A stretch of DNA of 64,000 bases from Raillietiella orientalis (taxonomy: Eukaryota): NCBI GenBank assembly GCA_036172245.1, contig JAYWIR010000088.1:1-64000 (forward strand). Reading direction: 5' to 3'. Of the stretch, positions 1 to 32,368 are shown one piece after another; positions within the stretch are counted from its first letter, which is position 1; the number at the start of each line of letters is the position of its first letter. The position numbers and the translations under genes were made by a program. Below the pieces are notes generated by a model, which was given only the letters and a program-made list of their open reading frames with translations, did not search any database and was not told where the DNA came from.

Positions 1-3000
1 GCGCGGGAGATCGAATGCATCTCCGGAGGGCGGCTGTGGTATCGGTGTGGAACATCGAGAAGTTGTGGTGTCGCTTACCTTCTTCGGCCCGTCATCGAGG
101 CCGCCGTCCTGGAGTTCGGTTCGACGATCACGGTCGTGTCGGCCAGCTGACTCTTAGCTGGTCCGACTCTATCGACCTGATCCTGACGAACGTTGACGCC
201 TCGAGCGGAGCGGACCTGACAAACAGGAGGTTCAGGTAAGAATTTTTCCTTCTTCTCCATCGCGACTGGTTGACCGAGGCAGGCGTGCGGAATGCCCATC
301 TGGTTGCAGGCGATTTTAAAGTTCCTCTGAAACCGGATGGGCCGAATCACGAGCGGGACCTGGTCAACGAGGTGTGCGCGGCGGTGCACACTTGTAATTT
401 GTTGGCCAGTGTACCAGGGATGGAGGACAACATCGATCACGTGTTCCTTGACGAGCACCTGTGCACTCGTGTGGTCAGGCGCTGCAAGTTACCGTGCAAG
501 TTGTCCGACCATCGACCAATCGTGATTGAAATCATTCCGCGCGACAAGGGCCCCCCCTTGTCAGCGTGGCGTTTTCCAGGGGAATGGCTGAAGCTCCCGG
601 ACGCGACGGAACATCTCCGCACGTTTTTACGGAGCTTCAGGATGCAGACACTCCAGGATTGGGACCACTTCAAACGGTCGGTCCAGGAGTTCTGTGAGCA
701 GTTCCCTCTGCACCGCCTACCTGCGGGATTTGGGGACGGGGTACGTAACGAACGAACCTATCTGCAGGCTCGCCGTTACGCCAGGACCCCTGACATCCGC
801 AGGATGGCGGAATACAAAGGGGGAGCCGAGAGGCAAGCCTGGCAGTCAGGATCGGCCAGCTTGCTGGACGATCAGGGCCAGGAGCATTCGGCACCCGCTC
901 AGATCCGCGGTCTGCTGCTGCGTTTTTATTCCTCCCTGTACGCAAGAACGCCTCCCGTGCGGGATTTCTCACAACTCCTGCTTTCAAAAGGCGCTCCTGG
1001 GATCGGGAAGGAGCAGAGAAAGACCCTCGACGAGCCTTTCACGATGGACGAGATCCTCTCGGCCATCAAAAAGCTCAAATGGCGAAAAGCTCCAAAGGAG
1101 GACGGCCTGCCCGCGGAGTTTTATCAAACTTTCGCGGCTGAGCTTACTCCCCTGGTACAGCAACTCACCTTGCTGATACGCGAAACAGGTGACGTTCATG
1201 CCTCGTTTCGTTAGGCAAAGGTGCGGCTCCTCCCTAAGGGAGGAGATCTGAGGAGCATGAACAACTGGCGTCCCATCACAATAGTGAATGCGGACGCCAT
1301 GTTGGTGGCTAAGGTTTGGGCAGAGCGTCTGGGACGGGTCGCCAACATCTTCATCAGCTCGGAACAGACATATGCTGTTCCCGGACGAAGTATGGAGGCG
1401 AACCTGTTCCACGCTTCCACCTGGCTAGAGCTCCAACACGAAAGGGGCTTGATGCGCACCGGGAATTCCGTTGAGTCCGTTAGTCATGCGACGGATGGTC
1501 GGATGTGGGAGGGAGCACTTGCTGTCGTTGTCGACTTGCGTAAAGCATTCGACAGCGTCGACGACAACCTCTTGTTAGAGCTTTTGGAACGCATGGGCTT
1601 CCCGACCTCATTATTGGCCTATCTGCGCTCTTGCTGGCGCGATTCGCAAGTCAATGTTACCTTCAGCGGGCATACTGTTCATGGCGTGGTTGTGCGACGT
1701 TGGATCCGGGAAGGAGACAGCCTGAGCCCCTTGCTCTTCAGTACCCACTTTGAGTTGGTACTGAGAGTGTACAGGGAAACACTGGCGCACCTGCCGCATG
1801 AATGCGCCGGAGCGCCTGCGGTTTCAGCATATGCGGACGACCTCCTGCTAGTGCTCCCTATGTCCACCCCGGCTTCGGCGTTCGACTAGTTCTTCGACCT
1901 GCTGAATCGAGGAACCAGGCTTACGGTGAACAGGGCGAAGTCGTCCGTGATGCCAGTTGGTGCGGCGTGGTCAGGGCAGCAGGACTGGGTCCGTTTGGGG
2001 ATCCCCATGGTGAGGTACTAGAAGAAACTTGGTGTGCCTTTGGGGGACTACTCCCCTGCGTAAGCGTGATCCGGCTGCCTTCAAAAAGTAGAGACGGCTA
2101 TCGGCCCGTTCCGAGGCGGCAGGTTTTTTTTGCCTGAGCGGGCCGCGGTTGAGAAAATGTTCGCAACTCCTCTCCTCCGTTCCCTGCTTTTTGTTTGGCC
2201 CCCCCACAGAGAGGATCAAAAAGCGGACGAAGGACCTCCTCCGTATCGCCCTTTGTGGCAACGGGAGGGCACGAGTCCGCTTTAAGGACTTGTGCGCTCC
2301 GCTTCGGGACGGTGGTTTAGGCCTCCTGACATTGGAGCGGCTGGAGCTGCAGCTCCAGTTCCGGATTTTTGCACTTGTGCCGGAGTTGTGGTGCACCGGT
2401 TGGTGCGTCCCTGCACGTCTCCTTTTCAGCAAGCCACCGGCAAGACGGGACTTACGTCGTTTCTTGCACTCCATCGAAGCCGCATCAACCGATGTGGTCT
2501 TCAGCTACGGAGGGTGGCTACGCTGGCAAGGAAACATCAAGGATGGATCACCTGTCTCCCCGCGAACGGTAGTTTCTGGTTGCAGGAAACCGTTCGCACG
2601 TGGGGACAGTTCGGCATGCAACCCTCCCATGAGGAACGAAGGTTCCTGTTTGGGTGTTACAGAAGTTGCACGCTCCGTGAGATCCTGGAGGATCCTAAGA
2701 ATCGAGCGTGGTCAGGAAGAACCCCCCTCTCTGCTGCGCTGGACTCCCTAGTGGAACATCAGGACAGCGATGTTGCGGCGAAATGGGAGGTTACAATAAA
2801 AATCTCCGGGAAGGAGAAGAAGCAGATAGAGTGAAAGACAGGCCCGCTAACTGATGCTGCGACCCCGAGTACGCCTCCTAATGGACTTCTGCGCTGGGGA
2901 GCGCTGCTGGATGTTCCGATTGAACAACTGAAGTGGCCCCCAAGTCTTATGAACACTTCCATCCTCCCCCTAAAATGGCAAGAGTCGGCATTCCTGTTGC

Positions 3001-3430
3001 AGCACTGGGGACTCTTCTGCAACGCCCGCCGACACCACTGGACCTGGAGAGCGGTGGACCCCAATTGTGTAAGGTGCGGGGAACGGGATTCCCTCCCCCA
3101 CCTCCTTGTGGATTGTGTTGCCCTTCCGCCCTATTGGTTTTGCTTTCCGCGGCCATCGGTATCCCTTGCGGCAACCCCAGGGACGCACTAAAAGCCTTCT
3201 TCGTTGCCGACGCCCTTCGGCCAGCGTCCTCGATAGCAGCCCTGTGCTGCCTCCGTGGGATCGTCGCCGCCTGGAGCAGGACGACGGGAGGACCTGGCGA
3301 TATGGACGCCATCCAGTGCGCCTCCCAATTACTGAGGAGAGCGTCGCGATGGCCTTACCTGGATGTTCATAACAAACAAGAGCTTGTCAGCATCCTGAGA
3401 GGGATGATGCGGCCCCAGCAGCATCAGTGA
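1..3430 (+). pseudogene. ORF2 (APE-RT-zinc finger), multiple stops and frameshifts
   Basis: ORFs 270-1214, 1221-1889, 2149-2751, 2949-3191 and 2933-3430 are collinear pieces of one L1-type ORF2. Confidence 0.9.
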
Positions 3431-3647
3431 TCCCTTCCAGTTCCCTCCCACCCTTTGTTTCTTTTTGTTTAGTGTTTTTGTTTTTCCCCTTTCCCCTGCT
3501 GCCTTGGTGGATCGAACCGGTCTAGAAACCGGTGAATTGGCAGGTTCCGTGGTTCTTAGCTTCTGGCTGGAGCATTGCCACAGCCATTAATAATTACTTT
3601 ATAAAGTTTATTTTTTAATAAACGACCCGGAGAAATCCGGGTGAAAA
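1..3647 (+). mobile_element. Tx1/L1-clade LINE, family C-like; ORF2 plus 3' UTR, 5' part outside the window
   Basis: Broken frames give APE (HLVAGDFK, IDHVF, LSDH), RT (WRPIT, DLRKAFD, REGDSLSP, AYADDLL), GGLG and NCVRCGERDSLPHLLVDC. Stop at 3430. Ends AATAAACG-ACCCGGA-GAAA-TCCGGGT-GAAAA. Confidence 0.93.
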
Positions 3648-4023
3648 TCGAATGCTTTGTGCAAATCGACCGCGACGGCAAAGGCTCCCGCCGAGTCCGT
3701 CCTATCCTCTGCATGATCTTCTTGGTCAGAGGGGCGCGCGAGGCTCCCTTGACCATCCTGAGCAACGCGTTGTCGCAACTGCCACCATGAGCTGACGAGG
3801 AGCAGTTTCGCCTCCCTGGCAGCAAAACTTCTCGCTGGAGGCGAGGGACGATCGGTGCAGGCTTTCACTCCTCCCGAAGAAGGTCCTGCGACGCAAGGGG
3901 ATTCCTCCACCTCTATTTCTGCGTGCCCTGGCTTCATTTTCCTCGGAAAAGAAACACCACACCCAAAAGGAACAGCCGCAAAGAAGCACCAAAGGCGAAG
4001 CGCAAGAATGCACGTCCGAACAA
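3648..4023 (-). mobile_element. Internally deleted LINE: 5' UTR and ORF1 start fused to an RT fragment, interrupted at the KAFD motif
   Basis: Starts TTGTTCGGACGTG (5'-end motif). ORF1-type 'RSFAA' runs into RT 'EAKLLLVSSWWQL...AVAVDLHKAFD'. Confidence 0.7.
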
Positions 4024-4040
4024 TGGACATGGTCGGCTCT

Positions 4041-4200
4041 TTGTCACTCGGGTGCGCCAAGTCGTTTATTACAAACTATCCGGGAACAGAGTTCAAGGAC
4101 AAAAAGAAAAACAAGATACGAAGGGGGTGGGATCCCCGACACGCAGGTTGGTATGCTGAAAGTCCGGAACGGGTAGGAGGGGAACACAAATACACTACTA
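4041..4200 (-). mobile_element. Isolated LINE 3' UTR fragment with terminal hairpin
   Basis: Minus strand ends AATAAACGACTTGG-CGCAC-CCGAGTGACAA after a T-rich tract. Confidence 0.65.
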
Positions 4201-4652
4201 GAGGGAACTGCGGAATGTCAACTGTTGGAATGTCAAAGGCTTGCGCGACGACGGTGACAGGCGAGATACATCCGACACCTTGCGGGAGTTCGACCTGTCC
4301 CTGTTGCAGGAGATCCACGTGATCACCTCGGCAGACGTCCAGGAGATCGAAACGATCGAGCGGTGTCTGCTGTACTGGCAATGCGGCATCCGCAACACCT
4401 GCGGGGTCGAGTTCTTCGTGAAGCAGGCTATCGACGCTGCCGTGAACGGCGTCCGCTTCGATTACGACGGTCGGGTGAGTCAACTGCTTCTCGGCTGGTC
4501 CGACTCGAACGATCTGATCGTCACGAATGTGTACGCCCCAACCGGTCAAAAGGGATACAGCAACAGTACCAGGTTGCTTGAATCCCTCAAGCGCGACTGG
4601 CTGGCCAACACGAACGTGCGGAAGCCTCACCTGATAGCGGGAGATTTCAATC
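4200..4652 (+). pseudogene. Family D APE, N-terminal half (host of the family A insertion)
   Basis: CWNVKGL...DLSLLQEIHV...NVYAP...HLIAGDFN; homology stops exactly at GDFN. Confidence 0.88.
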
Positions 4653-4730
4653 GAGTGCGGACGTGTTTTTCTTCGCTCTCGTCTCCGTGCTTTCATCCGC
4701 TTCATCTTGGCGTCGTACATTTTGACGACG

Positions 4731-6650
4731 ATGTCGACCCAACCCGAAGCTACTGAAGTTGGAGGAACAGCATCCGGATCTGCAATCGCGGAACCGAAGG
4801 CCGCCTCCACTTCGTCTTTCTCGCCAATGGAGAGGAGTTTTGCTGACGTTGCTGCCACAGCAGCCGTCAAAGGGAGACCACTCGACGAGTCGGAGTTGCG
4901 GGCATACGTAGCCCAAGGCTATCGACCTGCTCTCCGATATAAGGTGAGTGGTTTTCTTTCTGCGCGCGAAAGGAATCAGTTCAACGATGAACTGAACCGT
5001 GTTGGCGTGCGGGAGGAGGACCTCCTCGCCATTATGCCTGTAAAGGATATGGGCTATTTCAAGGTGCGTTGCAAAGACGCTGCACTTGTGCAACGCTTGC
5101 TGCGCACCCCGTTGTCGATCCGTGGCCAGAAGGTCTTCCCGGCCGCCATGGACGACTCATTTGTGGCGGAGATTTTCGACATCGAGTCCGAAATCTCCGA
5201 TATTGATATTCGGAACGCTTTGGCGAAATTCGCCACGGTCCATGCGCGGTAAAGGGTGCGTAGCAACCTCAAGGACCTCCCGTCCATACACAGCAGAGTC
5301 GCTGGAGTCCGGCTTACAATGCCGGACCGCCGTCTGCTGCCCACCAAACTACAGGTGAAAGACACGGTCGTTCACCTGTAGTTCGTGGGCAAAGTAAGAA
5401 CGTGCGAGCAATGCGGAAAGGAGGGGCATTGTTTGGATAAATGCCCCTCTGGAAAATGCCGTTATTGCAAACTATCAGGGCACCAATTGGAAAATTGCCC
5501 GGATCTTTTGCGAAAAAGGCAGCCGCGGAGCTCCATCTTAAAAAACAAAGCGCGGATACAAAGAAAAAATCAGCGAAAAACCTGGAGACCCCACGGCACA
5601 AATTCGGTAAAAACGGGAGGCGGAATGTCGCCCCAAAGCAGCAGGAAATTTCGCACGCGAAGCCCTGCGCGCCCCCTCTAGCGGCAGGGAGCCGCAAAAG
5701 AAAGGGTGCGGGGAATCCGGGGCAATGGTAAGTCCCCCTAGGCGCAATAGCAGTCCTTCCCAAGCACGCCCGGCTCTCTCGGAGTTCGAGCAACCGGCGG
5801 GGACACCAATGGACAACGGCGGTAAGGACATTTCCAGTAACGTCAGTTCCATTCCTTCATCCCCTGCAGTGGCTGAGAAGCCCAAATCGGGTAAGAAGGG
5901 TTGTGCCGTGTCGACTTCGAAAGTCGGCAAAATAAATCCGCGTCGCGATCCAACACCGCGAAAGCGGAGAAACATCTCACGGCGTCGCAGTCGGAGAGCA
6001 AGCTCTCGACTGGCGCGGATGCCATGACAACGCAGGGATTAAAAGCCCTTCCGAAGGTAGGGTGCATGACGAGCGTGTCGGAGCCATCGAAAGTGCTCCC
6101 GTCCAAAGACGCGGATGGCCTCAAAGATGGCAATGGAGCACAATCTCCATTTACGGCGCCACGCAAAGTGAGGAACCGTAATGAAGTAAAGAAGACTTCA
6201 GCAAGGGTCCCTCGTGGAACTGCGCGTGAGCACGCTGAAAACGCGCGCGCCGGGAAAGCAGCCGTCACAAAAAGCGATGCTCTGGTAACGGAAAACGACA
6301 ACACGACAGCTGTCAATCCAGCAGAACCTGTCACTACTTCGCGGAAGGCCGAAACCCGATCGAACATGCGCCGGTCGGACTCCGAAATGGATGCCGTACC
6401 GATCACCGAGACGAGGACAACTCGTTCGAAAGCGTGTGCGCGCCGATCAAAAGTAGGCAGCCAGGCAACGCTCGCCGCGAAGCAACGCGAAGTCTCCACG
6501 AAACCCGACGGGGTTAAGCCTGGCGTGGAGGCATTACATGCATGCAGCACCACAGAGGACGGTGGCGACCGTCCCCTCCAGCCAGTCGTGCTGCTCGCCG
6601 TCTGATCGCCGGAAGAAGGGAGCACAAAGCCGCCACCTTCCCAGCAGTAA
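4731..6650 (+). pseudogene. ORF1 (gag-like nucleic-acid-binding protein, two CCHC knuckles), disrupted
   Basis: RSFADVAA and LVQRLLRTPL N-terminal domain; CEQCGKEGHCLDKC and CRYCKLSGHQLENC; K/S/A-rich tail ending SQQ-TAA at 6648-6650. Confidence 0.88.
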
Positions 6651-9600
6651 TGCATGGAATCGCGTCTTCTCGTCGTCTGTCCGTAACGTGTTGAAACGTG
6701 AACGGACTACAGAACGACGAGAAGAGGCGATTAGTAGCCAACGCCCTGCGCCCCTTCGACCTGGCACTCCTGCAGGGGATTCACGTAATCTCGGACGTGC
6801 AGGCAGCCGAAATCGAGGAGCGCGCAGGCGGAACGCTACATTGGCGGTGCGGCGGCGCACGCACGTGCGGCGACGCGCTCCTCGTAAGAGGAAAGATGGC
6901 GGAAGCGGTGCGTAGTGTTCGTATTGATGACGACGCACGGATAGGCCAGCTTGTCATCAAGTGGTCCGAGTCCATCGATCTCGTCGTTAGGAACGTCTAC
7001 GTGCCGAATGGCATTCGCTACCTCGAAGAAAGAGTACCTTTCTTTGGTGAGGTGCAGAGCCACTGGCTCAACAACATTGGCTTCCAATTGGGGCACCTTG
7101 TTGCTGGGGACTTCAACGTCCGCCTGCTCTCCGACGATTGGAGCCGCCCGAGGGACCGCGCGCTGTCCATCGTGATGTGCGCGTCCGTGCATGCCGCCAA
7201 CTTGATGGTCAGCGAACCTGGAATGGAAAGATCGCTCGATTACGTTTTGCTCAATGAAAACCTGCATTCGCGCGTGGGAAGGACAGGAAGATTGCTGACT
7301 AGGCTTTCTGACCACCACAGGTGTGAGTTTGAGATTCTTCCGCCAGGCAGGGGGCCTCCGTTGCAAAACTGGAGGATGCAGGCACATTGGCTTAGCCAAC
7401 CAAAGGCTGCGGAGCATCTACGTGGACACCTCCGAGGATTTGCCATTCAAGAACTTGCGGACTGAGACGATCTCAAAAGATCTGTCCGCGAGATTTGCTG
7501 CCAATTCCCCTTGTACCAGCTTCCATGCGGTTTCGGAGAGGGCGTGGCCAACAGTAGAGACTTTCTGCAGGCCCGCACGTTTTCGAGACGCGCGGATGTC
7601 GGGCGTCTCGCAGAGTACAAGGCGAGGGCCGAGCGCCAGGTCTGGCAGTCCGGAGCAGCATGCCTGTTGGACGACAAGGGCTAGGAATGTTCGGCCCCAG
7701 CCGAAGTACGCCGCATTGTGAGACGCTACTACTCCTCGCTGTACGCGGAATCCCCGACGGAGGATATTCTTTCTGAGATACTCCTGTCTCAGGATGCTCG
7801 TGTTGTCGGCGAGGAGGAACGCGAACGTCTCAACGAGCCCTTCACGCCGGATGAAATTTCGTCCGCCATCGCTGGGCTGAAGAGACGAAAGGTGCCAGGC
7901 GCTGATGGGCTCCCTGCAGAGTTTTATCAGTGCTTTGCAGTGGAGCTCATTCCCTTGATGCTGAGACTCGCAACGCTGATGAGTGAATCCGGGAATGTCC
8001 CGGATTCCTTATGCTCAGCGAAGGTGCGTCTCCTGCCGAAAGGCGGAGACTTGCGTCAACTTAACATCTGGCGCCCGATCACCTTAGTAAACTCGTACGT
8101 CAAGTTGTTTTCCAAGGTGTGGGTCGCGCGGTTAGGAAGTATCGCGGAATCTGTGGAGAGCCCGTAACAAACCTACGCGGTTCCGGGACGATCCATGGAG
8201 GCGAACGTCCTTTTCGCGCGTACATGGATGCAGCTGCAGGAAGTTGTGGCGCAGCAAAGCCATGCTGCTGCGAAAGTCACTGCCGCAGGCAAGAAGAACA
8301 GGCGCCGACGGCAGGAGGCAACGCCAAGTGCCTTGGTGGTCGCGGTCGTTCTCCAGAAGGCGTTCGACTGCGTAAACCAGAAGCTGCTTTTGGAGCTTAT
8401 AAAACGCCTTGGGTTCCCGGTGCAACTCCTGCTGTATTTGCGCGCGTGCTGGCGCCACGCGCTTACCTGCACCACTTTCAGCGGCTGCCGCATGTAAGGT
8501 ATTCCCGTGCGTAGGGGCATCCGACAGTGCGACAGCTTCAGCGCTTTGCTCTTCAGTATCTTCTTTGAGTTGGTGCTTAGAGCATACAGGCTGACGCCGT
8601 CTCACTTGCCTAGCTCCTGCCCGGGAACGCCTGCCGTGGCCGCCTACGCTGATGACCTGCTTCTTCAGCTCCCCATGTTCACCCCGGCGTCCAGTGTCGA
8701 GGATTTCTTCGACCTGATTCGTCATGGAACGGGCGTGAGCGTGAACAGAGAGAAAAGCGTGGTCGTTCCTGTGGGTACGTCGTGGGAGGAACAGTCCGAC
8801 TGGATCCGCCTGGGGATCCCCACGAGCGGGTACCTTAAGTACCTTGGCGTTCTGTTGGGCGCTTACGGCGCAGCCGATGCGTGGGCGGACTATCTTCAGA
8901 AAGCAGAGTTGGCCATCAGCCCGTTCCTTAACGGCAAGTTTACCTTGCAGGAACGGGCGTCTATTTGGAACACCTTTGTGGCCCCCCTCCTCCGTCCCCT
9001 GTTTTTTGTTTTGGCCCCCTCTATGCGGCGAAACAGCGGGCTGAACACCTGCTCTGGAACGCTTTCTGGGGTCCGGCTAGTTCCAGGTTCTGCCTTAAAG
9101 CTTTGTTAGCTCCGCGTCGAGATGCTGGTTTGGGTATCCTGACAATGGAGCGAATCGGACTGCAGGTGCAGTTACGTCTGCTGGCACTGTGTGCCCAGCT
9201 ACGGACATCTTCCCTGTGTGTGCCAGCCCGCGTTCTCCTGCGGAGATGCGCCGACAGCATAGGATTTCTCTCGCTTTTGCCGGGCACTCAATACAGGAAG
9301 CGGGGTTTCGGGTTTCCATTGCGGCAGTTGACCGCACTTCTGGAAGCTCACTTGTGGATCTCCTGCCGCCCAATGAACTTTGAAGCTTGGCGGCAGGAGT
9401 CTGTTGAATCCTGGGCGGCGTTCCAAGGAATACGCTTTGAAGATCTTCGCCCCCTGCGTCAATTTTATCCACGATCCTTGGAAGAATTACTGCAGGACGA
9501 GGTGAAGTTTTCTACCCTGGATGCCACGCGTCTTGCCGCAGCGCTGTTTGCCCTCAGGGCAAGAAACGACAGTTACCAATAGGCGAGGTTGGAGATTTCC

Positions 9601-10243
9601 TGCACGATAGCGGGAAAAACCAAAATTCCTTGGTGCCTGGAAGACGAGTGAGTTGGCGGACGCCGCCACCTCTTGTGCTGCTGCAAAGGGTCTCCTCTGG
9701 TGGGCAGAAGAACTTGCTGTCACCCCCAAAGAAGTTGTAGTCCCTTCACAGTGTATTAGCAGTTCGCTGCTCTCCCTTGCTTGGAAACAAGACGCGTTGG
9801 TTTTTGTTCACTGGAGTTTTCAGTGCAACGAGCGTTGGCATCGTGACTCCGGGGGGCTTGCGTCTGCGAACTGCGTTCGGTGCGGATCCACGTAGTCGAT
9901 TCCGCACCTACTTCTGGACTGCGGTGTCCTACAAGGACTGTGGCGTAGGCTGACAACAGCACTAATGCATCCCGTGGACATCGCAAGAGACTTGCTGCGG
10001 CGATTCTTCACGCCGAGCGGGCTGTCCCTAAGCGCAAAAATTGCAACCATCGGTTGCATACGCGCGATAGTTTCCGTCCGCCAGGCGTTGGTAATCAACG
10101 GACAGCACCAAGAGGTAATCAGCAAAGCATCCTTCCACATGGAAGCATCCGGTAGATGGCCTCATTTGACAGAGGAGACAAAAAGGAATCTCGCCGCAAT
10201 GCACCGCCGGTTTACACACGCTCAGCAGCGGCTAACCCGGTGA
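6650..10243 (+). pseudogene. ORF2 (APE-RT-zinc finger), disrupted
   Basis: NVNGLQ, LQGIH, AGDFN, LSDHH; PGADGLPAEFY, WRPIT, KAFD, GIRQCD, AYADDLL, KYLG; NCVRCGST..PHLLLDC. Confidence 0.92.
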
Positions 10244-10556
10244 TCATTGCCCTACCCTCCATAAACTAATTTTGTATTTTCTTTTCACACCCGCGTCCCC
10301 ATAGGCTCCGGAGCATTCCAGGTGGTCATCGTTTAAATCTTTGTGAGTTCGAAGCCTAACCAAAAACCCGTTACCCTTCCCTCCAGTTTTTGATTTTTGT
10401 TTGTTTTTCCTCATTCCTCATACGCTGCAAACGGTTTGTCTACCAGGCCTGCGTGCCGGTAATTTTTCTATGTTCCCTGTCGTTCTGTTGGTTGGAGACA
10501 TTGTCCCTGTCCAGTTTATCATTATTAATAAACGCTCCGGAGTGACCGGGTGATAA

Positions 10557-10899
10557 ATTTTAATCTCCGTCTGCTATCAGTTGATCCTAAAACACAAGTA
10601 AACCCTATGAACGAGATCTACGCCGCCATGCGTGCGCGCAACTTGTTCGAGGGTGAGAGGGAAATTAAGCGCAGCATCGACCACGTCTTCTTCTACGCTG
10701 ACCTGTCTTCACGGGTCGGCAAACGGGGGAAGCTTGCGTCGACGCTGTCGGACCATTCGCGGCTAATTTTCGAGATGCGGCCTCGCGACAAGGGACCGCC
10801 ATTCAGGGATTGGCGTCTACCGGGGGACTCGACGCGACTGACAAGTGCGAAGAAACACCTTTGCGAATTCCTGAGAGGCGTCACGCTCCAGAGTCTCTC
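10557..10899 (+). pseudogene. Family D APE, C-terminal half (continuation of 4200-4652)
   Basis: FNLRLL...SIDHVF...LSDH...LRGVTLQSLS, then interrupted by a minus-strand 3' end. Confidence 0.88.
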
Positions 10900-13707
10900 T
10901 TGAAACCTGGTACGCCGGGACGTTTATGTGTTCAAATAAACTTATATAAACTGTGACTGGACCAGTAGTGCAGCCACGCCCTGGAAACATTCAGCCTGCC
11001 GGGCTACCGGTGCACAGACCGACGCGATCGACCTCGGCAGCAGAGAAGAAAGGGAATCAAAGAGAAAGAACAAAAAGAAATAAACAAAACCGGGATAGGA
11101 GCGGGAAGGGACCACTGTCTGTTGAGAGGGTCCGTCAACTTCTGGAGGATGCACGCAAGCTTTCGCTGAATGGTGGATTCCAGATGGGGCCATCGCGTCG
11201 ACTTCCTCAGGAAACGGGCGGCGTACACGGTGGTGTCCCTGTCGCTGGACACTCCCGTCGCTTTGCTCCAGGCCACGACGATCCCGCGTAGGCAGCACAG
11301 GGTTGCAAGCAAGGCCGCCGCAGGCAGGGCGTCACGGACGAAGAGGGGGCGCAAAGAGTCTCTGGAATTGTCTCCGCAATTCCCCAGGGCCGCGGAAAAG
11401 CGTTACTACAAGGGACGGAGGGCAACACATTCCAGTAACAGGTGATGGAGGTGTTCCCTCTCCCCGCAGCTGACACAATTGGGGTTCACACCCCACCGCG
11501 TCCAGTGGTGTCGGCGGGCGTTGCAGGGGAGGCCTCAATGCGACACCAGTAGTGCCGACTGTTGCCACTTCATGGGGAGGGTGCGCGAGTCCATGGGCAA
11601 CGGGGGCTTCTCCAGATATTCCTCTGGAACACCCAGTAGCTCGTCCCAGCGCAAGAGACCATTTGCGGTGGTCCTCGGGGTCGCAGCGCTGGTGAGCTGA
11701 CCGGTTCTCCAATCCCCGATCTTCTTTGCCCTACTGGTGATCTTGACAGTGAAATTTCATTGTGCCGCGACGTCGCTGCCCAGATGTTCCCGTATTGTAG
11801 GCAGTACCGCAGCAAGTGAGGGACTTTGAGCCCACGCTCTTTTTCGGGGTTCCTCGAAGATTTCTCGGAACGTGCGGTGGGCGTGCGGACCAAACAGAGC
11901 TATTCGCTGTTGTTGCAGGCTCTGCTCCTGAGTCATCGCCCACGTGCGGACGGTTTCCTGCAGCCAGGCAGGACCGTTCGCGGAACGTACGAGGATCCAC
12001 TCCGAGTTGGTCTTCACGAGCTTCGCCGCCCTTCGAAGCTCAAGTCCGCCGTAGCAGATATGGCTTCCGAGTGCAAAGTAGGACGAGAGTCCCGCATTGA
12101 TGGTGGCCCGCTCGACGAGGAGACGTGCAGGGAGGTACCAGGCGGTGCACCAATTTTTTGCCATAAAGGCAACACTCCGGAACAGGAGCTGAAGCTCAAT
12201 CCGCTCCAGCGTCAGGAGGCCAAGACCGCCGTCCCGACGCGGAGCGCACAAGTCCGCGAGACGGACTCGGGGCCTCTTTCTACCCCAAAGGGCTATCCTC
12301 AGGAGGTCCTTCGTCCTTTTCCTAGACTCCGCTGTGTGGGGGCAAACAAAAAGCAAGGGGCGAAGGAGGGGTGCCGCAAACGCGTTCCACGCCGCGGCCC
12401 GTTCCTGCAGGTAGAACCTGCCATCCTGGAACAGGCAGATCGCCGTTTGAGCCTTCTGAAGGCAGCCGGATTACGCTTCCGCAGGGGAGTAGTCCCCCAA
12501 CGGCACACAAAGGTACTTGAAGTACCTCACCGTGGGGATCCCCAAACAGACCCAGTCCTGCTGCTTTGCCGACGCCGCTCCGACTGGCATTACAAATGAC
12601 TGCGCTATGTTCACCATAAGTCCGGTTCCATGATGATGCAGGTCGAAGAACTCCTCGAGCACCGAAGCCGGTGTGGACATAGGGAGCAGCAGCAGAAGGT
12701 CGTCCGCGTATGACGAAACCGCAGGCGCACTGGGACAATCTCGCGGCAGGTGCGCCAGAGTCTCCCTGTACGCTCTCAGAACCAATTCAAAAAAGGCGCT
12801 AAAGAGCAAGGGGCTCAGGCTCTCTCCCTGCCGGATCCAACGTCGCACCGTTACGTTGTGCACGGTTTGCCCGCTGGAAAAAACATTAATGATCGCGTCG
12901 CGCCAGCTGGAGCGCAGGTAGGCCAACTAAGAGGCCGAGAAGCCCAAGCGTTCTAGAAGCCCCAGCAAGAGATTCTGGTCGACGCTGTCGAAAGCTTTAC
13001 GCAAGTCGACAGCGACCGCAAGGGCTCCCTAAAACACCCAACCGTCCCGTCTTTCGCCATCGGACGCACCGGAATTCCGGCTGCTCACTAAGACTGTTTG
13101 CTTGTTGGAGCTCTAATCATGTGGAAGCGTGGAACAGGTTTGCCTCTATGCTTCGCCCGGGAACAGCATAAGTCTGTTCCGGGCTGATGAAGATGTTGGA
13201 AACAGGTCCCAGACTCTCTGCTTACATCTTAGTTATCAACTTGGCGTCCTCATTCACTATTGTGATTGGACGTCAGTTGTTCATGTCCGTATCTCCTGCC
13301 AGCAAGTTTTGCGTGTGCATTTGTGCGCACAACTCGTTGACGTGGTCGTTCAGTGTAACCGGCGCACTTCAAAGCAGGCGCAGGTTGAAGTCACCTGCGA
13401 TCATGTGCGCTTTGTCAACACCTGCTTCGATTAGCCAATCGCCTTCAAGGGCGAGGTAGAATTCTCTTCTTGCATTCGTTCTTAACGCGTATCAACTGCT
13501 AGGAGCGTACAGCTTGGTGACGATCAGGTCGATTGAGTCGGACCAGCTGAGAGTCAGCTGACCGACGCGACCGGAGTCATCAAACCGTACGTGCTTGATT
13601 ACGGCCTCGATGGCTGGCCGAAGCAGGAAGGCGATACCGCTAGATTTCGCGGTGAGGCAGCGCCACAGCAGCTGTGAACCCGAGATCCCTTCGATCTCCT
13701 GCGCTCG
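10900..13707 (-). mobile_element. Family C-like LINE: 3' UTR, RT, internally deleted APE
   Basis: 3' end ATAAACGTCCCGGCGTACCAGGTTTCAA; SYADDLL, RQGESLSP, GGLG. APE is fused to RT at ~13285. Truncated at AQEIEG by the next element. Confidence 0.9.
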
Positions 13708-16533
13708 TACAGTGCCGACGTGTTTCCGCGTCTATCCGTGCCAACGATCGGGCAACTTTGTTCCTTCGTTTTCACTCGCACTTGTGTGTTCCTGGGCAAT
13801 CTGCAGAGCGGCATAGTGCAACATGGCCAGTACACAGGATAGTGTGGAGGAGCAAGCCACTGGATGCACTTCAGCTGCACTTGAAGTGACTGCATCCTCC
13901 GTAATGGTTTCCTCGCCCCCAATGAGGAGTTACGCCGCCGTTACCTCCCAAAGACCAGGACCCTGCGATGCGGAGTTCCAGGCATATGTGTCATCAGCAT
14001 ACATGCCTGCACTCCGTTATAAGGTCAGTGGGCCCCTTAACGGGAGAATCGGTCGTGAGCTCAATGATGAGCTCGTCCGGATCGGCGTTCGCGAGGAGGA
14101 ACTCCTTGCCATAATGCCTGCTGGCAGGATGGAATATACGAAGATTCGGTGCTAGAACGCAGCACTTGTGCAGCGCCTCCTCCGTACGCCGTTGACCATC
14201 AATGACAAGGAATTCCTACCTACCGCGATGGACGACTCTTTTGTCGTTCAATTGTGCGACATCGAACCGGAAATCTCCGACCGCAATGTTGTGAGCGTGC
14301 TGGCGCAGCTCGCCAACGTGCACACCCTGTGGAGGAGGCCGAACTGTTTGAAGGATTTCTCCTCTGTCCACATCGGACAATCCTCGGCGCAAATCACCGT
14401 CGCGAACAGGCGTGTTATGCCTGAGTAGCTGCAGGTGAACGGCACGGTCGTACACCTGTGGTTCATAGGCCAGACTCGCGCGTGCGAGCAGTGCGGCAAG
14501 GATGGGCACCGAATTAAAGAGTGCCCCTCTCCAAGATGCCGCTATTGCAAAGATTCCGGGCACGAAATCAAAAAGTGCCCGGTACTTGCAAGAAAAAGAG
14601 CCGCAGCGGAAATTCGTCGGGTTCAAGAGACCACTGCACGAAAAGCCGCAGCGGCAAATAGAAAACGTCGTTCGCAAAAACTCGCAAAAAACCACGAGCT
14701 ATCCGCGCATGAAAAGAAAGCATCCCCGCCCGCAACGCCCCGAAAGGGGAAAGCCACGGCGGGGAAGCCAATTAAAAAGGGGCGCGAGGGTTTGACGCGT
14801 GCCTTGCCTGTGCTCTCTGCCGAACTCGCAGGCACCTCTCCGAGCCAGGAACCAGGAAATCTCCGTAACACCCTGGAAGGAAGGGTAGGAAAACAGGAAC
14901 ATCGCAACAGTGCGAAGAATTCTTGCCCCGTTCCGTTGTCCCTTCCGAGTTCCGGACAGCCCACTGCAGCGCAGGCCCCTCTGCAAAAGCTACGAAAGCC
15001 GTAAAAAGCAGCGTCGCGACGAGCAAAAGCACGCTGCATACAGTAGCCCTATCGCCCACTTGGCAGGAGAGGAGCAATCTCCCTACTGTCAAGAAGGTGA
15101 CTCCGTTGCCGCCTTTTAAAATCGTAGCAAAAGCAACGCCCCCAGAGAACGCAGCGAAAATCCCGGAGGTTTCCGCAACTACTATCGCTGAAGCCACAGA
15201 AATCGCGAAGGCGAATGAAAGGTTGTAGAGAGGAGGAAAGAAAAATCTCCAAGAAACGCTTAGCAACATACATCCTTGAGCTCTTCCAAAGGAAAAAGCA
15301 GTCGCGCAAATACGAAAACACGCGCGGCTTGTGCCTCTTCCCAGGAAAAAGTCAGCGCCTTCAACGCGTGCAAGTCCGCTTCTGTGACCGCCGAGAAGAC
15401 CATTGCGGTGCAATCGGACGGATGCAAACGCACGTCGATCGTGCGAGCATCAGATTCCTCAAAGGATTCCGATAGCGCAACTAAACGACGCGTCACTCGC
15501 GCGGGAGCGAGCGCTTGCAGGGCTAAAGCCCTGAGGCGTGGCACACTCGCCGCGGAACGGCAAGTGCTCACCCCGAAACACACAGGTTCTGCACCCGGGG
15601 AGGAGCACCCGATTACGTGCAGCACAGTAGAGGCCTTTGGCAAACGCGCCCTCCAGCCCGTTGTGCTGCTTTCTGCCCGCTCGCCGGGTGAGGCGGGCAC
15701 CAAGCCCTCGCTTTCCCAGCCGTGATAAGGGCAATCGCGTCTTCTCGTCGTGTTGCCGTGACGTCTTGGAACGTCAATGGGCTCCAACACGAGGAGAAGA
15801 GGGGACTTGTTGCTCACGCTCTGCGCGCCTTTGACTTGACGCTCCTGCAGGAGATTCACAGCATCTCCGAAGAGCAGGCTTCCGTAATCGAACAACGCGG
15901 GGGCGGAACGCTACTTTATAGGTGCGGCGCTGCACGTACGTGCGGCGTCCCTTTCCTTATGCGAGGAACTTTGACAGGAGCGCTGCGCAGCGTTCGTTTC
16001 GACACGGGAGCCTGAGTGGATCAGCTTCTACTGAAGTGCTCCGACTCCCTCGACCTTGTCGTAACCAACGTGTACGCGCCGAGCGGTGCTTGAGGATGGG
16101 CCGAAAGAATTGAGTTCTTCGGTACCGTTTAAAGCCAGTGGCTCACTCGATCTCACTCTACTGTCTCCCAACTCATTGCGGGGGACTTCGACGTCCACCT
16201 GCTTTCCGATAATAGCTTCCACAAAAGGGAAAAGTTGCTAGCGGAAGAGATGTCCGCATCCGTGCATGCGTGCAACTTGTTCGCTAGCGACTCTGTGATA
16301 ACAGCCACGCCGGATCAAATATATCTTGATGAACACTTGCTCTCTCGAGTGAGACGGAAAGGTCCTGTGCCGTCCCTGCTTTCAGACCACAACAGGCTCA
16401 AATTCGAGTTGCTCCTGCCAGGCAAGGGACCTACAAACAGTTTTTGTAGGATGCCGGCAGAGTGGCTAAGCCACTCGGAGGCGTCTGTGCATCTTCGCCA
16501 GTACCTCCTCGGGTTTGCCATGAGTAAGCTCGA
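13708..16533 (+). mobile_element. Family B LINE, 5' half (5' UTR, ORF1 13823-15725, APE 15725-16533)
   Basis: Starts ACAGTGCCGACGTG; RSYAAV, CEQCGKDGHRIKEC, CRYCKDSGHEIKKC; WNVNG, LQEIH, GDFD, LSDH. Ends LLGFAMSKLD. Confidence 0.92.
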
Positions 16534-16758
16534 TTTTCAACCGGTTGCGCTGGGGTGTTTGTTCTTTGGAATAAAACAAACGTTGGTCACTGACCAGGTA
16601 GTCCGACCACACACTGGTATACAAAATTAAGCCTACCGTTCCACTGGCTCGTATTCTGGCGCGGTCCACCACGAAAGCAGAGGGGCCAAAGACAAGACAA
16701 AAAATAAAACAAATAAAATAAATATATAAAATTAAGATCTGGGGGGCACCAGAAGGGA

Positions 16759-19700
16759 TCACAGTCTGCTGTGGGGCCGTTAAATCCTTTGCAGGATACC
16801 GGCAAGCTGTTTTTGGATGTTTGAATCCAGATGATTCCATCCTGTCGCCGTCCGCAGAAATTCGGCTGCGCACTGGACAGCACCCTTATCGCGAGGTCCT
16901 CCCGTTGCTTTGCTCCATGCAGCGACGATCCCGCGAAAGCAGCACAAAGCTGCTAACGAGGCCGAGGGCCGAAGGGCGTCGCAAACGAAGAGGGATCTGA
17001 TTGCGTCTCTGGGGTTGCCACAGAGGTTAACGATTGCCGCGGTAAAACGCTTCAAAAGGGGCCGAAGAGCCACACAATCCAAAAGGAGGTGAGCGAGGGA
17101 CTTCCGTTCTCAACACCTCGCACAATTAGGGCTCACCGCTTTTCAGGTCCAATGCTGTCGGCGGGCGTTGCAGGGGAGTCCCCAATGCAGCAACAATAGC
17201 GCCGACTCCTGCCATTTCAAAAAGACGGTAGAGGTGTTCATCAGCACCGGGGGCCACTTTAATTGTTGCCGCGGAACATTTAGCAGCTCGCCCTAGTGCA
17301 ATAGACAAATAGGGGTGGTAGTCCCGGCCCCGGTATCGCAGAGAATTCCCGTTTTCCATTCCCCTATCTTTTTCTCCGTACCGGAGATTTTCATGTAAAA
17401 ATCCCATTTCGCAGCAGTGTTGCTGTTAAAATGTTTGCGAGCGGAAACAGCATTGCAGCGAGGGGAGTTTTTCTTGCCCACGCTCGTTTTTAAGGGTTCT
17501 CCAGGAAGTCCCGGAGCGTACGGCGGTCATTACGGGCGGAGTATTGTTTCTGCCTTTCTTATATGCGTTGCTGGTTGCTCTTCGCCCACGTCTCAAGCGT
17601 TTCCTGCAGCCATGGAGATCCGTTAACAAGGCGACAGCAGAGCCATCCTGCGTTCTTCCTCATCAAGTCAGCCACTCTCCATAGCTGCAACCCGCAGTGA
17701 CCGACTTGGCGGCGAAGACGGAGCGCCAGGAAGGATGACACTTTCACCTCGCCTGTACCCTTTTCGACGAGGAGACGTGCGCGCTCGCAGCAGCTGCTAT
17801 TCCAATATTTCGCCACTTGGGCGAGTAAGGGAAACTGGAGCTGGAGCTCCAGCTGCTCTAGCGTCATGAGGCCGATACCGCCGTCCCGTCGCGGAGTGCT
17901 CAAGTCCTAAAGCCGGACTAGGGCCCTCCCATTACTCAACACAGAAATCCTTAGGAGGTCCTTCGTCCGCTTTTTAGTCTCTGTGGTAGGGGGACAAACA
18001 AAAAGCCGGGTAACGAGGAGGTGCGCCGCGAATGCGTTCCACACCGCGGCCCGTTCCGGCAGAAAAAACCTGCAACCTTGGAACGGGCAGATCGCCGTCT
18101 CTACCTTTTCAAGGCTGCTGAACCACGCATCCGAAAGAAGATAATCAACCATCATTATACCGAGGAAATTGAAATACCGTACAGTGGGGATCCCCAAACG
18201 GAACCAGTCAGGCTGCCCTGCCCGCGACACACCGATTGGCATGACGGACGACTTCGCCCTGTTCACCACAAGCCCGGTTTCCCGACTTAGCAGCTCGAAG
18301 AACTCCTCGACCGCCGATGCCGAGGTGGTCATAGGGAGCAGCAGCAGTAGGTCGTCCGCATATGCTGACACCGCGGGCGTACCGAAATAGTCGCGCGGCA
18401 AGTGCGCTAGAGTTTCCCTGTAAGCTCTCACTACCAACTCGAAGTAGGTACTCAAGAGCAAGGGACTCAGGCTCTCTCCCTACCGTATGCCGCGTCCCAT
18501 CGGTACTCCGTGCACGGTGTGTCCACTGAAAAGGATCTAGATGAGCGCGTCGCGCCAGCAGTATCGCAGGTAGGTCAGCAAAGAGACCGGGAAGCTCAAG
18601 CGTTCCAGAAGCTTCAGGAGGACCCCCTGGACGACACAGTCGGATGCTTTATGCAAATGGACTGGGACTTCGAGAGCTCCCTCCCCCCCCAACTACCCCG
18701 TTTCCTAGCGGCGGATATTTTGGAAGTCCGGTTGCCCATCCTGACTTTTTCCTGTTAAATCGCGAAAAAGGAGCAGGCGAGGAACAGGTTTTCATCCATG
18801 CTCCACCCGGGAACAGCATATGTCTCCTCCGGGCTAATGAAGCTTCATGCTAACCGCCCCAGACGTTCAGCATACAATTTCGCCAGCAACTTGGGGTCCG
18901 CGTTTATCACGGTAATCGGCCGCTAGTTGCTGATTCTCCGAAGGTCTCCTCCCTTAGGGAGGAGACGCACCATTGCCGAACGAAACGAGGCGGGGACGTC
19001 GCCCGTTTCTCGGATCAGCAAGGTGAGTTGCTTCACCAGAGGAGTGAGCTCCGCCGCAAAACATTGAAAAAGTTCCGATGGCAGCCATCCTCTCATGGAG
19101 CCTTCCGCCTCTTGAGCTTTTGGATGGCCGAGATGATCTCGCCCATCGTGAAAGGCTCGTCGAGGTTCTTCCTATCTTTCTCTTCGATCGCGGCAGCGCC
19201 CTCGGGAAGAAGAAGTCGCGAGACATCCCGTTCCGGTGGAGCGGCGCGTACTGGGAGGAGTAGAATTTTTTTGATAGTCCATTTACCTGGGCGGGGGCCG
19301 AGTGCTCCGTACCCTGGTCGTCCAGTAAGCTGGCAGACCCGGATTGCCACGCCTGCCTCTCGGCTCCCTCACAGTATTCGGCTAGCCTGCGTACGTCTGG
19401 TGTTCGTGCGTAACATCGAGATTGTAAATACCATATCTCGTTACGCACGCTTTCACCAAACCTGGCAGGCAGGAGGTTCATAGGGAACTCGTCGCAGAAA
19501 TTCAGGACCGAGCTCTTGAAACGGTCCCAGTCCTGAAACGTCTGCAAGCTGTAACCTCGTATGAATCCGCGGAGATGCTCCGAGTCTTCCGAAAGTTTCA
19601 GCCAGTCCCCCAGTAAGCGCCACGCAGATGACGGCGGACTCCTATCGCGTGGGCGCACCTCGAGTACGATCCGGTCATTGTCCGACAGTTCCGACGATAA

Positions 19701-20342
19701 CTTGCCGCGCCTGCCCACGCGTGAGCATAGGTGTTGGTCAAGAAACACGTGATCTATGCTGTGGTCGATTTTTGGTTCTCACGCGAACAAGTTGCGCGTG
19801 TGCATCTCTGCGCACAGCTCGTTTACGCGGTTCCGAAGTGTGTCGGACGCACCTGACAGCTGGCGCAGGTTAAAGTCACCTGCCTTTAGGTGCGCCTTGC
19901 GCACTCCCGCTTCGTCCAGATATTCGCGCCTGAGGGTAAGAAAGAAATCTCTCCTTGCCGTTGCCCTTATCGCGTCGCTGCTGCTTGGGGCGTAGACGTT
20001 GGTAATGACCAGATCGATGGAGTCAGACCACCTGATGGTCAACTGCCCGAAGCGACCGGCACTATCGAACCGTACGCCCTTTGCCGTTGCCTCGACAGCT
20101 GGACGAAGCAGGAACGCGACACCGCAAGATTTAACGGTGCCGCAACGCCTCAGCAGCCGTCCAACCAAGATACCCTCGATCTCCGTTGCCTGATCTGTGG
20201 GGATCACGCGGATCTCTTACAGCAGCACCAGGTCTAACGACGTCAGGGTGGAGGCCACGTCTCGTTTCGTGCTGTCGTCGCTTACCCCGTTGACGTTATT
20301 ACAGGCAATTCACACACCGAGGCCAGAGGCGATTCCCGGCCT
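16759..20342 (-). pseudogene. ORF2 of the family C copy, disrupted
   Basis: NVNG, HLKAGDFN, LSDN; AYADDLL; DGGIGL; C-terminal DALRPSASLAALCCFRGIV. Confidence 0.9.
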
Positions 20343-21954
20343 TAAGGCTGGGAACGTGGTGTTGCAGCACCTGTCAACGGACAGGTGGGAGGGACGAGTA
20401 AGGGGACCGCGGCCGTCTCAGGCACTTGAAGCACCTGGGGCACAGACTCTACCCTTTCCCTCCCTCCGAAGTCGCAGGGTGAGGTTACCTCTCGAGGATA
20501 GTCCCCGGAGTTCCCCACTTTATTGGCACGCTCGCTTTCCTCAATTATCTCTTCCTTTTCCACGGAGTGGAGAATTTTGCGGGTAGCCTCTTTCGTGCAA
20601 TTGGCCTTTGGTCGGGAGACCGCGATGCCGCAGGCTGTGTTTTCCGCCTCTGCGTCAGAGTTCGGAATCTCCGACTTCTTGATCGAGGTCGGACGCCATA
20701 AGGCCTTTTCCGCGGATTTAAGGGGACGCTGCAAGGATGCAGCGAGCTTCTCCGCCGCCCGCTCAAAGGCGACATCGTCGAGCATGCGTTCGACGACGGA
20801 CGCCACCGCCAAGTCGATAGCCTCCGGCATGAATTTGCCGGAGGGCTGAATGTCGGCAGCGACGTGTGCTATTTAGCCGCTCTGTTCGACCGCAAGAATG
20901 CGCTTGATGACGACAGAGCAGCGTTTGATATTTTCGCGACGCGGCAAATTCTCGCTACGTTTCGCGACATTTTTTCTTACCTCCTTGAGGCTTTTCTGCC
21001 TCTTGGATTTTACTACCTGCCATCCAGGATCCTGGCTGTTCTTCTCGATCTTGTCCGAGTTTTCCGAGATCTCGAAGCTGACCTTCAACTGGGACACGAT
21101 AGTTGCTTTTCGAGCGGCTTCTCTCTCTTGGGCTGCCTGAACTCGTGTTTTTCTCGCCGCGCGCTTCTTGTCATTCCGTGCGGACGCGACGCGGACTTCA
21201 TCTTGCAGGCACACTGGAAGAGTGTGCTCGGGTTGCTTGCTTTGCTTGCACTGCAATTGGGGGCACCTTTTTTCAGGTTCCCTGAAGTGCTGCAATGCCC
21301 TCAGAATTGCGGCTTACCAACATACCAGATGTCAACCTCCACCTTTTTTCGTAGGGTACAACACTAGCGGACAGTGATGCGCGCGGAAGCAATAACGCAA
21401 TTGAGGAGATCGTACTCCCAAAACGGATTCGGCCTTTTCCACAACGCGTCGACAGTTCCAAATTTAACTAGTTACTTTCGGACAGCCTTTTCGGCCATCC
21501 GGAAGGCGATTTCGAGGAAATGGATTACGATAAATCTATCTTCCGTGATGGTGAGGAGCCGGCGATTCCCTAAAGGAACAGGTGTACGCAGCAGACGCTG
21601 AGCAAGACTTGCTTCTTTGCAAATGACATCAACGTACTGTCCACCACTCATGATGGTCATCGCCATGAGCTCCTCCTGTGGTACTTTGAGGGAGTGCATC
21701 GCTTTTGAGAAAGCGCCTGCACTCTCAAAGGAGTAAAGGTTGCCTACCTTGTAGAGTAGAGTAGGATTGTACCGGTCCTCCAGGTAGGCTTTTACCTTAG
21801 CCGCAGCCGCTTGCGTTGGAGCCGCAGCTACGGAACACCAGCTTCTCCCTAGCGAGGGAGTCGCTACTGTGGGGGCGGTTGCCCCCACATCCATTGATTC
21901 AGGAGGCGACATAGACGTCACCTCCTCCCTAACATTGGTGGTTGTCCCAGGCAT
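20342..21954 (-). pseudogene. ORF1 of the family C copy, disrupted
   Basis: MPGTTT..RSWCSVAA..LAQRLLRTP; degenerate knuckles (KRCPQLQCKQSKQPEH); ends RSQP*. Confidence 0.8.
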
Positions 21955-22061
21955 TAATGCCTAGCCACCACCGAATTCACTGGCACACCAAGAAAAAAAA
22001 GAAAAAAAATAAAACCATAAACGGTCAAGAGCGAAACAAAAACCCGTGCTCTCTCACTAGA

Positions 22062-31400: not shown

Positions 31401-31506
31401 CGGCAGGCTTAATTCTGTATACCAGTGCGTGGCCGGGCCACCTGGGCAGCCACCAACGTTTGTTTTATTCGAAAGAATAAACGCCCCGGCGCAACCGGGT
31501 GGAAAA
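28467..31506 (+). mobile_element. Family C LINE: APE-RT linker through the 3' end
   Basis: DLHKAFD, RGIRQGDSLSP, AYADDLL, NCGRCGE..LLLDC; ends AATAAACGCCCCGG-CGCAA-CCGGGTGGAAAA. Confidence 0.93.
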
Positions 31507-31996: not shown

Positions 31997-32368
31997 TTGC
32001 GGGAGTTCGACCTGGCCCTGTTGTAGGAGATCCACGTGATCACCGCGGCAGACGTTAGGAGATCAAGACGATCGCGGGGGGTCGGCTGTACTGGCAATGC
32101 GGAGGCCGCAACACCTGCGGGGTCGTGTTGTATGTCAAGCCAACCATCGACGCTGCCGCGAAGTGCGTAACGTTTGATGACGACAGTCTGATCGTCCAGC
32201 TGATGTTCAGGTGGTCCGACTCGATAGGTTTGAGAGTGACATAAGTGTATGCCCCCAGCAACAGACAGGGCTACAGCGACCGTAACAGGTTGCTGGAAAC
32301 CCTGAAGCGCGACTCGATGGCAGACACGAATGTGCGAAAAGCTTAACTGCTAAGGGAAGATTTCAATC
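31997..32368 (+). pseudogene. Family D APE fragment ending at the (G)DFN codons
   Basis: Collinear with 4280-4652; ends GAAGATTTCAATC. Confidence 0.85.

Follow-up and report, generated by a model that had tools for sequence, protein, structure and literature searches.

The window, that is, the whole stretch of 64,000 nucleotides that was analysed, is a nest of decayed non-LTR retrotransposons from base 1 to ~55,000, and ~46 kb of it consists almost purely of nested LINE copies. Its G+C content is 51–58% up to ~46 kb and 45–58% past that point, with an abrupt rise to 67–70% at 56000–64000, where long ORFs occur in every frame. Codon-position GC gave no coding signal at 56–64 kb, and the 22 ORFs searched at 45–64 kb yielded zero Pfam families; the stretch 56000–64000 looks like non-coding G+C-rich sequence bordering the LINE nest. 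The repeat-rich region also contains a complete U4 spliceosomal snRNA gene (47890–48028, minus strand; Rfam RF00015, 100.7 bits), and nothing else in the window reached the Rfam gathering threshold.

Self-comparison assigned the copies that possess a 3' end to family A (two copies), family B (four) and families C, D, F and G (one each), plus a fragment, E'. The coding parts show 64–88% DNA identity between families, and the endonuclease-coding DNA is 49–62% identical across them. The full-length elements and their parts are as follows.

4656–10556, plus strand: full-length family A element, ~5.9 kb, recognised with Pfam and tblastn; its 5' UTR starts with CGAGTG
4722–5246, plus strand: ORF1-like region of this A element
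6695–7465, plus strand: its APE region
~8340–9020, plus strand: its RT region
9641–10228, plus strand: its Cys-motif/C-terminal domain, followed by the 3' UTR and the terminal module
16534–22057, minus strand: full-length family B element, ~5.5 kb, with an ORF1-like region at ~21445–21921 and a T-rich 5' UTR

The start of the 5' UTR of the full-length A element, CGAG(Y)G...TTTTT.TT.CGCTCT, is common to family B. The segment 21574–22057 was considered as a plus-strand element with an A-rich tail and rejected, since it is the T-rich 5' UTR and ORF1 of the minus-strand element.

Of the 52 ORFs scanned, 10 contain RVT_1 (best E = 1e-17) and two contain the Pfam family Exo_endo_phos (APE), at 6695–7465 (plus strand) and 25149–25778 (minus strand); APE is followed by RT in ORF2, as in L1-clade LINEs. 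Matches to zf-RVT (PF13966) were weak at 18.9–20.6 bits, below the cut-off of 27.5 bits, and the pattern C..CG...HLLL.C is visible in nine copies. A CCHC zinc knuckle follows the ORF1-like region 14429–15004 (plus strand). For a 343-aa RT ORF, the best PDB match was human L1 ORF2p (E = 1e-18 over 270 aa), compared with 1e-12 for R2. In a quick maximum-likelihood tree of 72 RT segments, three RTs from the window form a deep sister branch on the side that carries 21 of 21 zf-RVT-bearing proteins, which are plant-type L1; this split has an SH-aLRT value of 92, below 95, in a tree with no labelled RTE, CR1, I, Jockey or Tad references. Placement of these LINEs in the L1 clade is only moderately supported by such comparisons. 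Protein searches with the 343-aa ORF returned no close relative among 34 matches at near lengths and 70 at longer lengths; the matches are mostly 21–35% identical to the query, and the higher values (to 43%) cover at most one third of it. The ESM Atlas returned generic RT clusters only.

The module at the 3' ends

An earlier note on this DNA had described a common motif at eleven 3' ends, and the motif is indeed present at 11 of 11, with the end coordinates accurate to within 1–2 nt. Written as RNA, the module consists of (A)AUAAAC-G, a G+C stem of 5–7 bp, an M-GNRA loop and a terminal U-G-N(1-2)-A(2-4). Four sites lie on the plus strand (ends 3647, 10556, 31506 and 39241), and seven lie on the minus strand, where the element extends rightwards from 4041, 10900, 16534, 22062, 26890, 39591 and 52107. 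The instances, with examples of other features shared by the UTRs, are listed below.

3617–3647, plus strand: family D module of the copy 63–3647; AATAAACG, 7-bp stem ACCCGGA/TCCGGGT, GAAA loop, tail GAAAA
4040–4070, minus strand: module of E', a 5'-truncated copy of ~240 bp; stem ACUUGG/CCGAGU, loop CGCAC
10527–10556, plus strand: module of the full-length family A element; loop AGUGA, tail UGAUAA, then the target-site duplicate ATTTTAAT
10900–10933, minus strand: family C module of the copy 10900–~13700, the most decayed; loop CGUAC, 3' arm CAGGU; abuts host fragment H1 at site 2
16534–16563, minus strand: module of the full-length family B element; hexamer AACAAA, loop CGCAA, tail UGAAAA; abuts host fragment H3 at site 2
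22062–22091, minus strand: family B module of the copy 22062–25702; loop GCAA closed by A-U, tail UGCAAA
26889–26919, minus strand: family F module; hexamer AACAAA, stem with two G.U pairs, loop CGUGA, tail UGAGAAA
31476–31506, plus strand: family B module of the copy 28466–31506; loop CGCAA, tail UGGAAAA
39212–39241, plus strand: family A module of the copy 36384–39241; loop CGUGA, one broken stem pair (C.A), hexamer decayed to GAGAAA
39591–39620, minus strand: family B module of the copy 39591–42733; decayed 3' arm CUGAGUC, loop CGGAA; abuts host fragment H2 at site 2
52107–52139, minus strand: family G module; AAAGG in place of AAACG, stem GCCCGG/CCGGGU, loop CGUGA, tail GUCAA
3470–3600, 31330–31470 and 52140–52300 (minus strand): examples of shared UTR features

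A covariance model, R1, was built from the eleven sites and searched against the 64 kb with filters off, along the lines of the Infernal search that the earlier note had suggested. R1 recovers precisely these eleven sites, which are its own training set, with E-values of 3e-9 to 5e-5; the best score belongs to the end at 31506 (50.7 bits), and the end at 10900 scores 32.5 bits. As the next match has an E-value of only 4.4, there is no twelfth site in the window. A strict pattern gave three matches in the window against none in 100 shuffles, and a 23-base pattern allowing up to three mismatches gave nine against a shuffle mean of 0.07 (maximum 2, 100 shuffles). Rfam has no family for the module: in E-value mode, the region 31250–31520 gave a single match, a chance CRISPR-repeat hit at E = 2.7. 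A metagenome scan with the strict pattern found no match, and a looser pattern found 75 loci, of which none had LINE protein homology (tblastn with seven queries from the window), none had AATAAA in front and none had an A-rich tail. These 75 loci are taken as chance matches on contigs without LINE signal.

The module lies downstream on the same strand in all ten copies that retain the ORF2 C-terminus, at a distance of ~190–300 nt from the ORF2 C-terminal region in the five copies measured. The family F copy has a zf-RVT-like region at 27467–27823 (minus strand), and the family G copy has the ORF2 C-terminal domain at 52370–52612 (minus strand). The eleventh site, at 4041, belongs to the copy truncated to ~240 bp, which is only a short fragment because the sequence right of ~4225 is the APE region of a plus-strand element. 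The ORF at 4076–4918 (minus strand) was rejected as the body of the element ending at 4041, being the antisense of that APE region. Short, 5'-truncated copies of this kind are what target-primed reverse transcription from the 3' end predicts. Collectively, these observations support the motif as a conserved terminal module of LINE copies from at least 6–7 diverged subfamilies.

The claim that the 3' UTRs do not otherwise align between families did not hold, as they align in part, through a T-rich tract and one or more additional inverted repeats. One of these repeats, ACCGG-N6-8-CCGGU, lies ~110 nt upstream of the module in several families; a CUGCUGCC...GGCAGG helix encloses it in families B, C, D and G. 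Regardless, the module is far better conserved than the rest of the UTR, as is expected of a stringent-type tail. For one representative of each of seven families, mean pairwise identity is 0.59–0.67 over the module, 0.32–0.38 over the ~80 UTR columns that precede it and 0.33 in the flank that follows. This difference bears on the reading that the module has no present function and merely retains a similarity inherited from a common ancestor that has yet to decay. The families are certainly related, with the coding identities given above, and UTR parts further upstream still align. However, common descent alone would have to leave the module and the adjoining UTR of the same sequences at such different levels of identity, and would have to leave the module in 10 of 10 copies with an ORF2 C-terminus despite endonuclease DNA that has diverged to 49–62% identity. 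We regard this reading as very improbable.

Tail, loop and stem

Because the elements are nested in one another, the end of an element can be read exactly. At the nested junctions, host sequence resumes 6–7 nt past the 3' arm, so that the elements always end in U-G-N(1-2)-A(2-4). For example, host sequence at the 3' end of the family D copy resumes exactly at 3648, in the antisense RT region of another LINE; the end at 31506 directly adjoins the 5' UTR and ORF1 of another element, and the end at 22062 runs head-to-tail into the 5' UTR of the B element 16534–22057. None of the eleven 3' ends has an A run of eight or more, the A/T runs being located in UTR T-tracts or elsewhere, and no microsatellite follows the module. 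The poly(A) tail that is typical, though not universal, for L1 is thus represented at 11 of 11 ends by just 2–4 A's. The proposal that the hairpin stands in place of a poly(A) tail has to be qualified: long poly(A) is absent throughout, but the A tail is not replaced altogether, as a fixed tail of 2–4 A's persists.

Upstream of the stem, AAACG is present in 9 of 11 copies and an exact AATAAA in only six. At three of these six exact hexamers, all on the plus strand (D, A at 10556 and B at 31506), AAUAAA lies 24–25 nt before the element end. This is the usual distance from the hexamer to a poly(A) site, and the spacing also fits ordinary cleavage and polyadenylation. The module could then be mainly a signal for 3'-end formation. 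AAUAAA would direct cleavage at a point ~25 nt further on, which the hairpin would set or present, and the terminal A's would be where an ordinary poly(A) tail starts, with reverse transcription beginning at the junction to that tail. The CA followed by A's in five tails (C, E', G, A at 39241 and B at 22062) points in the same direction as the spacing at the three plus-strand copies. However, the exact hexamer survives in just 6 of 11 copies while AAAC(G) is kept in 9 to 10. Further, families A, B, C and D have an AU hairpin (GUUUAU-loop-AUAAAC) in which a GUUUAU upstream of the hexamer pairs with it and would sequester it; seven of the 11 copies show this hairpin at p <= 0.04 when compared with shuffles, although members of one family do not count as independent. 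Priming from poly(A) would also normally give longer A tails of variable length, which are seen at none of the 11 ends. As the main role of the module, 3'-end formation appears unlikely, although it can coexist with recognition by the RT.

The loop was correctly described in the earlier note. Across the eleven copies its bases are G (11/11), then any of A, U, C and G, a purine (11/11) and A (10/11), so that the variation follows the GNRA rule. Although 10 of the 11 loops have the G-N-R-A pattern, a closing pair (A-U) is found in only two (ends 3647 and 22062); the remaining loops are pentaloops of 5 nt with an extra 5' C or A.

For the stem, RNAalifold, which had been named as a suitable check, does predict 5 bp. 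However, the statement that the stems covary is not upheld by the alignment: the 5-bp stem pairs in 85.5% of cells against 85.0% in shuffles, the observed values of five measures were reached by 128 to 303 of 500 shuffles, and only one pair in 55 cells has changed on both sides, namely in E', whose stem ACUUGG/CCGAGU is the sole two-sided change among the eleven. One-sided changes that keep a pair number nine and pair-breaking cells number eight, a balance expected from neutral C-to-T and G-to-A decay of dead copies. This test has low power, as it draws on ~7 lineages and five pairs, and every copy is dead and decayed. Local folding gives the expected hairpin as the minimum-energy structure for seven of the 11 copies, and z is <= −2 for five of the 11; in the family D module at 3617–3647, the local fold reaches −13.2 kcal/mol with z = −7.2. 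When the last 200 nt are folded instead, only two of the 11 minimum-energy structures retain the terminal hairpin. Since stem covariation is not significant and the stem changes are balanced, what is demonstrated is a conserved inverted repeat and not a selected RNA helix.

The same result leaves some room for a palindrome (CCCGG-N5-CCGGG) that acts at the level of sequence or DNA and not as an RNA helix; it could be a protein site on DNA or on single-stranded RNA, or a signal for integration or second-strand synthesis. Both arms are indeed conserved in sequence rather than covarying, and the ACCGG-N6-8-CCGGU repeat ~110 nt upstream in several families is likewise built on CCGG. However, an RNA hairpin predicts both the GNRA-like loop variation and a constant location at the very 3' end of an element that is templated by RNA, and no insertion in the window targets the palindrome, bar one head-to-tail junction in two probably duplicated loci. 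A palindrome of this kind, in place of an RNA helix, is, on this evidence, improbable.

The reading that we favour, at slightly better than an even chance, is that the module is a stringent-type signal recognised by the ORF2 protein to start reverse transcription. The earlier note had proposed an RNA element for RT recognition or 3'-end formation in an L1-clade group; the conserved terminal module at a fixed distance of 6–7 nt from the end agrees with this, while the stem covariation that would have strengthened it is not significant. In the recognition model, the ORF2 protein would bind the hairpin, and above all its loop, as in 'stringent' LINEs, and the bound protein would hold the RNA end, which lies 6–7 nt downstream, in its RT active site, so that target-primed reverse transcription would start at a fixed position and copy only a few A's, whether or not the transcript had a longer poly(A). 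With the same module kept by all families, the ORF2 protein of one could plausibly act on the RNA of another. Across the 64-kb window, R1 found no module outside LINE 3' ends and no SINE-like or non-autonomous carrier. With no such carrier in the window, cross-mobilisation between families, raised in the earlier note, is at most plausible here. If the hairpin is the recognition site of the RT, a module common to co-resident families would be a natural system for testing it.

Insertions at recurrent positions in related LINEs

Two exact insertion positions were found in the APE-coding region, corresponding to window positions 7110 and 7450 in an uninterrupted A copy. Site 1, at the GDFN codons, has received sense insertions in two events, and site 2, ~340 bp downstream of site 1, antisense insertions in three. 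The host fragments and junctions are the following.

10557–10899, plus strand: host APE fragment H1, flanked by the 3' ends of a sense A element at site 1 and an antisense C element at site 2
39242–39590, plus strand: host APE fragment H2, part of an A-like element (A'), flanked by the 3' ends of a sense A element at site 1 and an antisense B element at site 2
15618–16533, plus strand: host APE fragment H3, element K, cut at site 2 by an antisense B element; site 1 unoccupied
4655/4656, 10556/10557, 10899/10900, 16533/16534, 39241/39242 and 39590/39591: insertion junctions

The occupants of site 1 are the full-length A element, flanked by an 8-bp target-site duplication (ATTTCAAT at 4648–4655 and ATTTTAAT at 10557–10564), and a separate A copy with an inverted 5' segment. 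Site 2 is cut at the same alignment column in three hosts, by C at 10900, B at 39591 and B at 16534. These insertions are independent, as the hosts are 49–54% identical to each other and the inserted B copies 84–88%. Fragment H2 is 81% identical to 7110–7450. The tail-to-tail pairs 10556/10900 and 39241/39591 are explained by the two fixed sites lying ~340 bp apart in the host LINEs.

A few structures accompany these insertions. The second A insertion at site 1 comprises 34836–36294 in inverted and 36384–39241 in direct orientation, with host parts at 34157–34833 and 39242–39582 and a host deletion of ~35 bp; the inverted 5' segment of this insertion (34836–39241) looks like the pattern expected from twin priming. 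The locus 31997–34833 repeats the first site 1 junction and is probably a segmental duplicate. At 22057–22066 and 31502–31515, a B 3' end is joined head-to-tail onto the 5' UTR of another element without host sequence in between. The two loci are 86% identical and probably represent one event that was then duplicated; the join itself may have arisen by template jumping or by re-insertion at the same site.

A third tail-to-tail pair, 3647 (plus strand) and 4041 (minus strand), is spaced 394 bp apart compared with 344–350 bp in the other two, and of its spacer (3648–4040) only 3650–3838 is recognisable, as the antisense of an RT region. Junctions near the start of the APE domain occur at 25702/25726, 26889/26890 and 13699–13705. 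As they differ by ~10–45 nt, a third insertion hot spot near the APE start is not claimed. At 59.5% identity, the segment 25726–26889 is homologous, in inverted orientation, to the stretch immediately upstream of the point where the neighbouring B copy is truncated.

The recurrent sites suggest, on the basis of one window, target-specific homing into related LINEs. The fuller proposal, namely a LINE lineage that combines a precise 3' end defined by a hairpin with homing at two exact endonuclease-coding positions of related LINEs, is tentative, and we would sooner doubt it than assert it. If homing is real, repeated insertion would build LINE-only islands, possibly centromere-like as with Zepp, and the shared module would let several diverged families use one integration machinery. 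If confirmed genome-wide, the recurrent endonuclease-gene sites would give a mechanism by which LINE-only islands build up.

Comparison with known systems

Close parallels for a terminal hairpin come from the L2 clade. Zebrafish L2 ORF2 proteins bind their cognate 3' stem-loop, with the loop deciding specificity, and the stem-loop is required for retrotransposition in eel UnaL2 and in zebrafish ZfL2-1 and ZfL2-2 (PMC4176376). Like the LINEs in the window, these three have a short conserved stem-loop a few nt from the 3' end. However, L2 elements end in short tandem repeats such as TGTAA (PMC3747384), whereas the window LINEs end in a single fixed U-G-N-A(2-4) tail, have an M-GNRA type loop and appear to group with L1-type proteins by their RT.

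A further parallel is R2, which has precise 3' ends, as the window LINEs do, and a structured 3' UTR RNA that is positioned by the protein for target-primed reverse transcription (PMC10499050). R2 and the Tx1 group of the L1 clade insert at defined targets, as the window LINEs may do, the Tx group being described as target-specific (PMC3747384). In contrast, R2 uses a restriction-like endonuclease and an rDNA target, while the window LINEs have an APE-type endonuclease and recurrent targets inside related LINEs.

For the nested arrangement, the closest descriptions are those of Zepp in Coccomyxa and ZeppL in Chlamydomonas, which form centromeric nested clusters of L1 LINEs (PMC3446292, PMC8226300; see also PMC9940879 and bioRxiv 10.1101/2025.03.28.645958). 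Insertion into existing copies, a gag-like ORF1 and an ORF2 RT are common to these elements and the window (PMC3446292, PMC8226300). Compared by description, the ZeppL-1_cRei insertion measures 8.3 kb against ~5.5–5.9 kb in the window, which holds several diverged families. L1-1_CR is given as a synonym of ZeppL-1_cRei (PMC8226300). The possibility that the window is a Chlamydomonas ZeppL cluster was set aside, as L1-1_CR is reported to end in poly(A), the described ZeppL-1_cRei insertion measures 8.3 kb and no other ZeppL family occurs in that species. The available passages of the Zepp and ZeppL literature mention no terminal hairpin and no fixed insertion sites.

The contrast drawn in the earlier note between L1 elements with poly(A) and L2 elements with a stem-loop is too simple, as L1-clade 3' hairpins are already published (PMC3747384). 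In that review (Ohshima), a conserved stringent-type 3' hairpin is described for the monocot L1 lineage 'monocot 1a', together with maize and sorghum SINEs, and Chlamydomonas L1-1_CR is reported to share its tail with SINEX-3_CR (PMC3747384). As in the window, the last ~45–80 nt of monocot 1a and L1-1_CR are much better conserved and contain a hairpin, which is read there as stringent (PMC3747384). However, the monocot 1a hairpin has compensatory changes, a UCU loop and a poly(A) end, and L1-1_CR also ends in poly(A) (PMC3747384), whereas the window LINEs have no poly(A), no significant covariation, a GNRA-like loop and no SINE partner in the window. Conserved stringent-type 3' hairpins in the L1 clade are thus already known, and the finding in the window is less new than first supposed. 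Among the matches listed in a literature search for LINEs with a GNRA hairpin, no such element is described in titles or abstracts.

If the hairpin is the recognition site of the RT, the window would provide a clear case of stringent recognition in an L1-like group without poly(A), and would bear on a question raised in the literature, namely whether stringent or relaxed recognition is ancestral in L1 (PMC3747384). Set against these known systems, the window LINEs differ in that they lack poly(A) and terminal repeats, end in a short tail of fixed form, have a GNRA-like loop and keep one module across several co-resident families.
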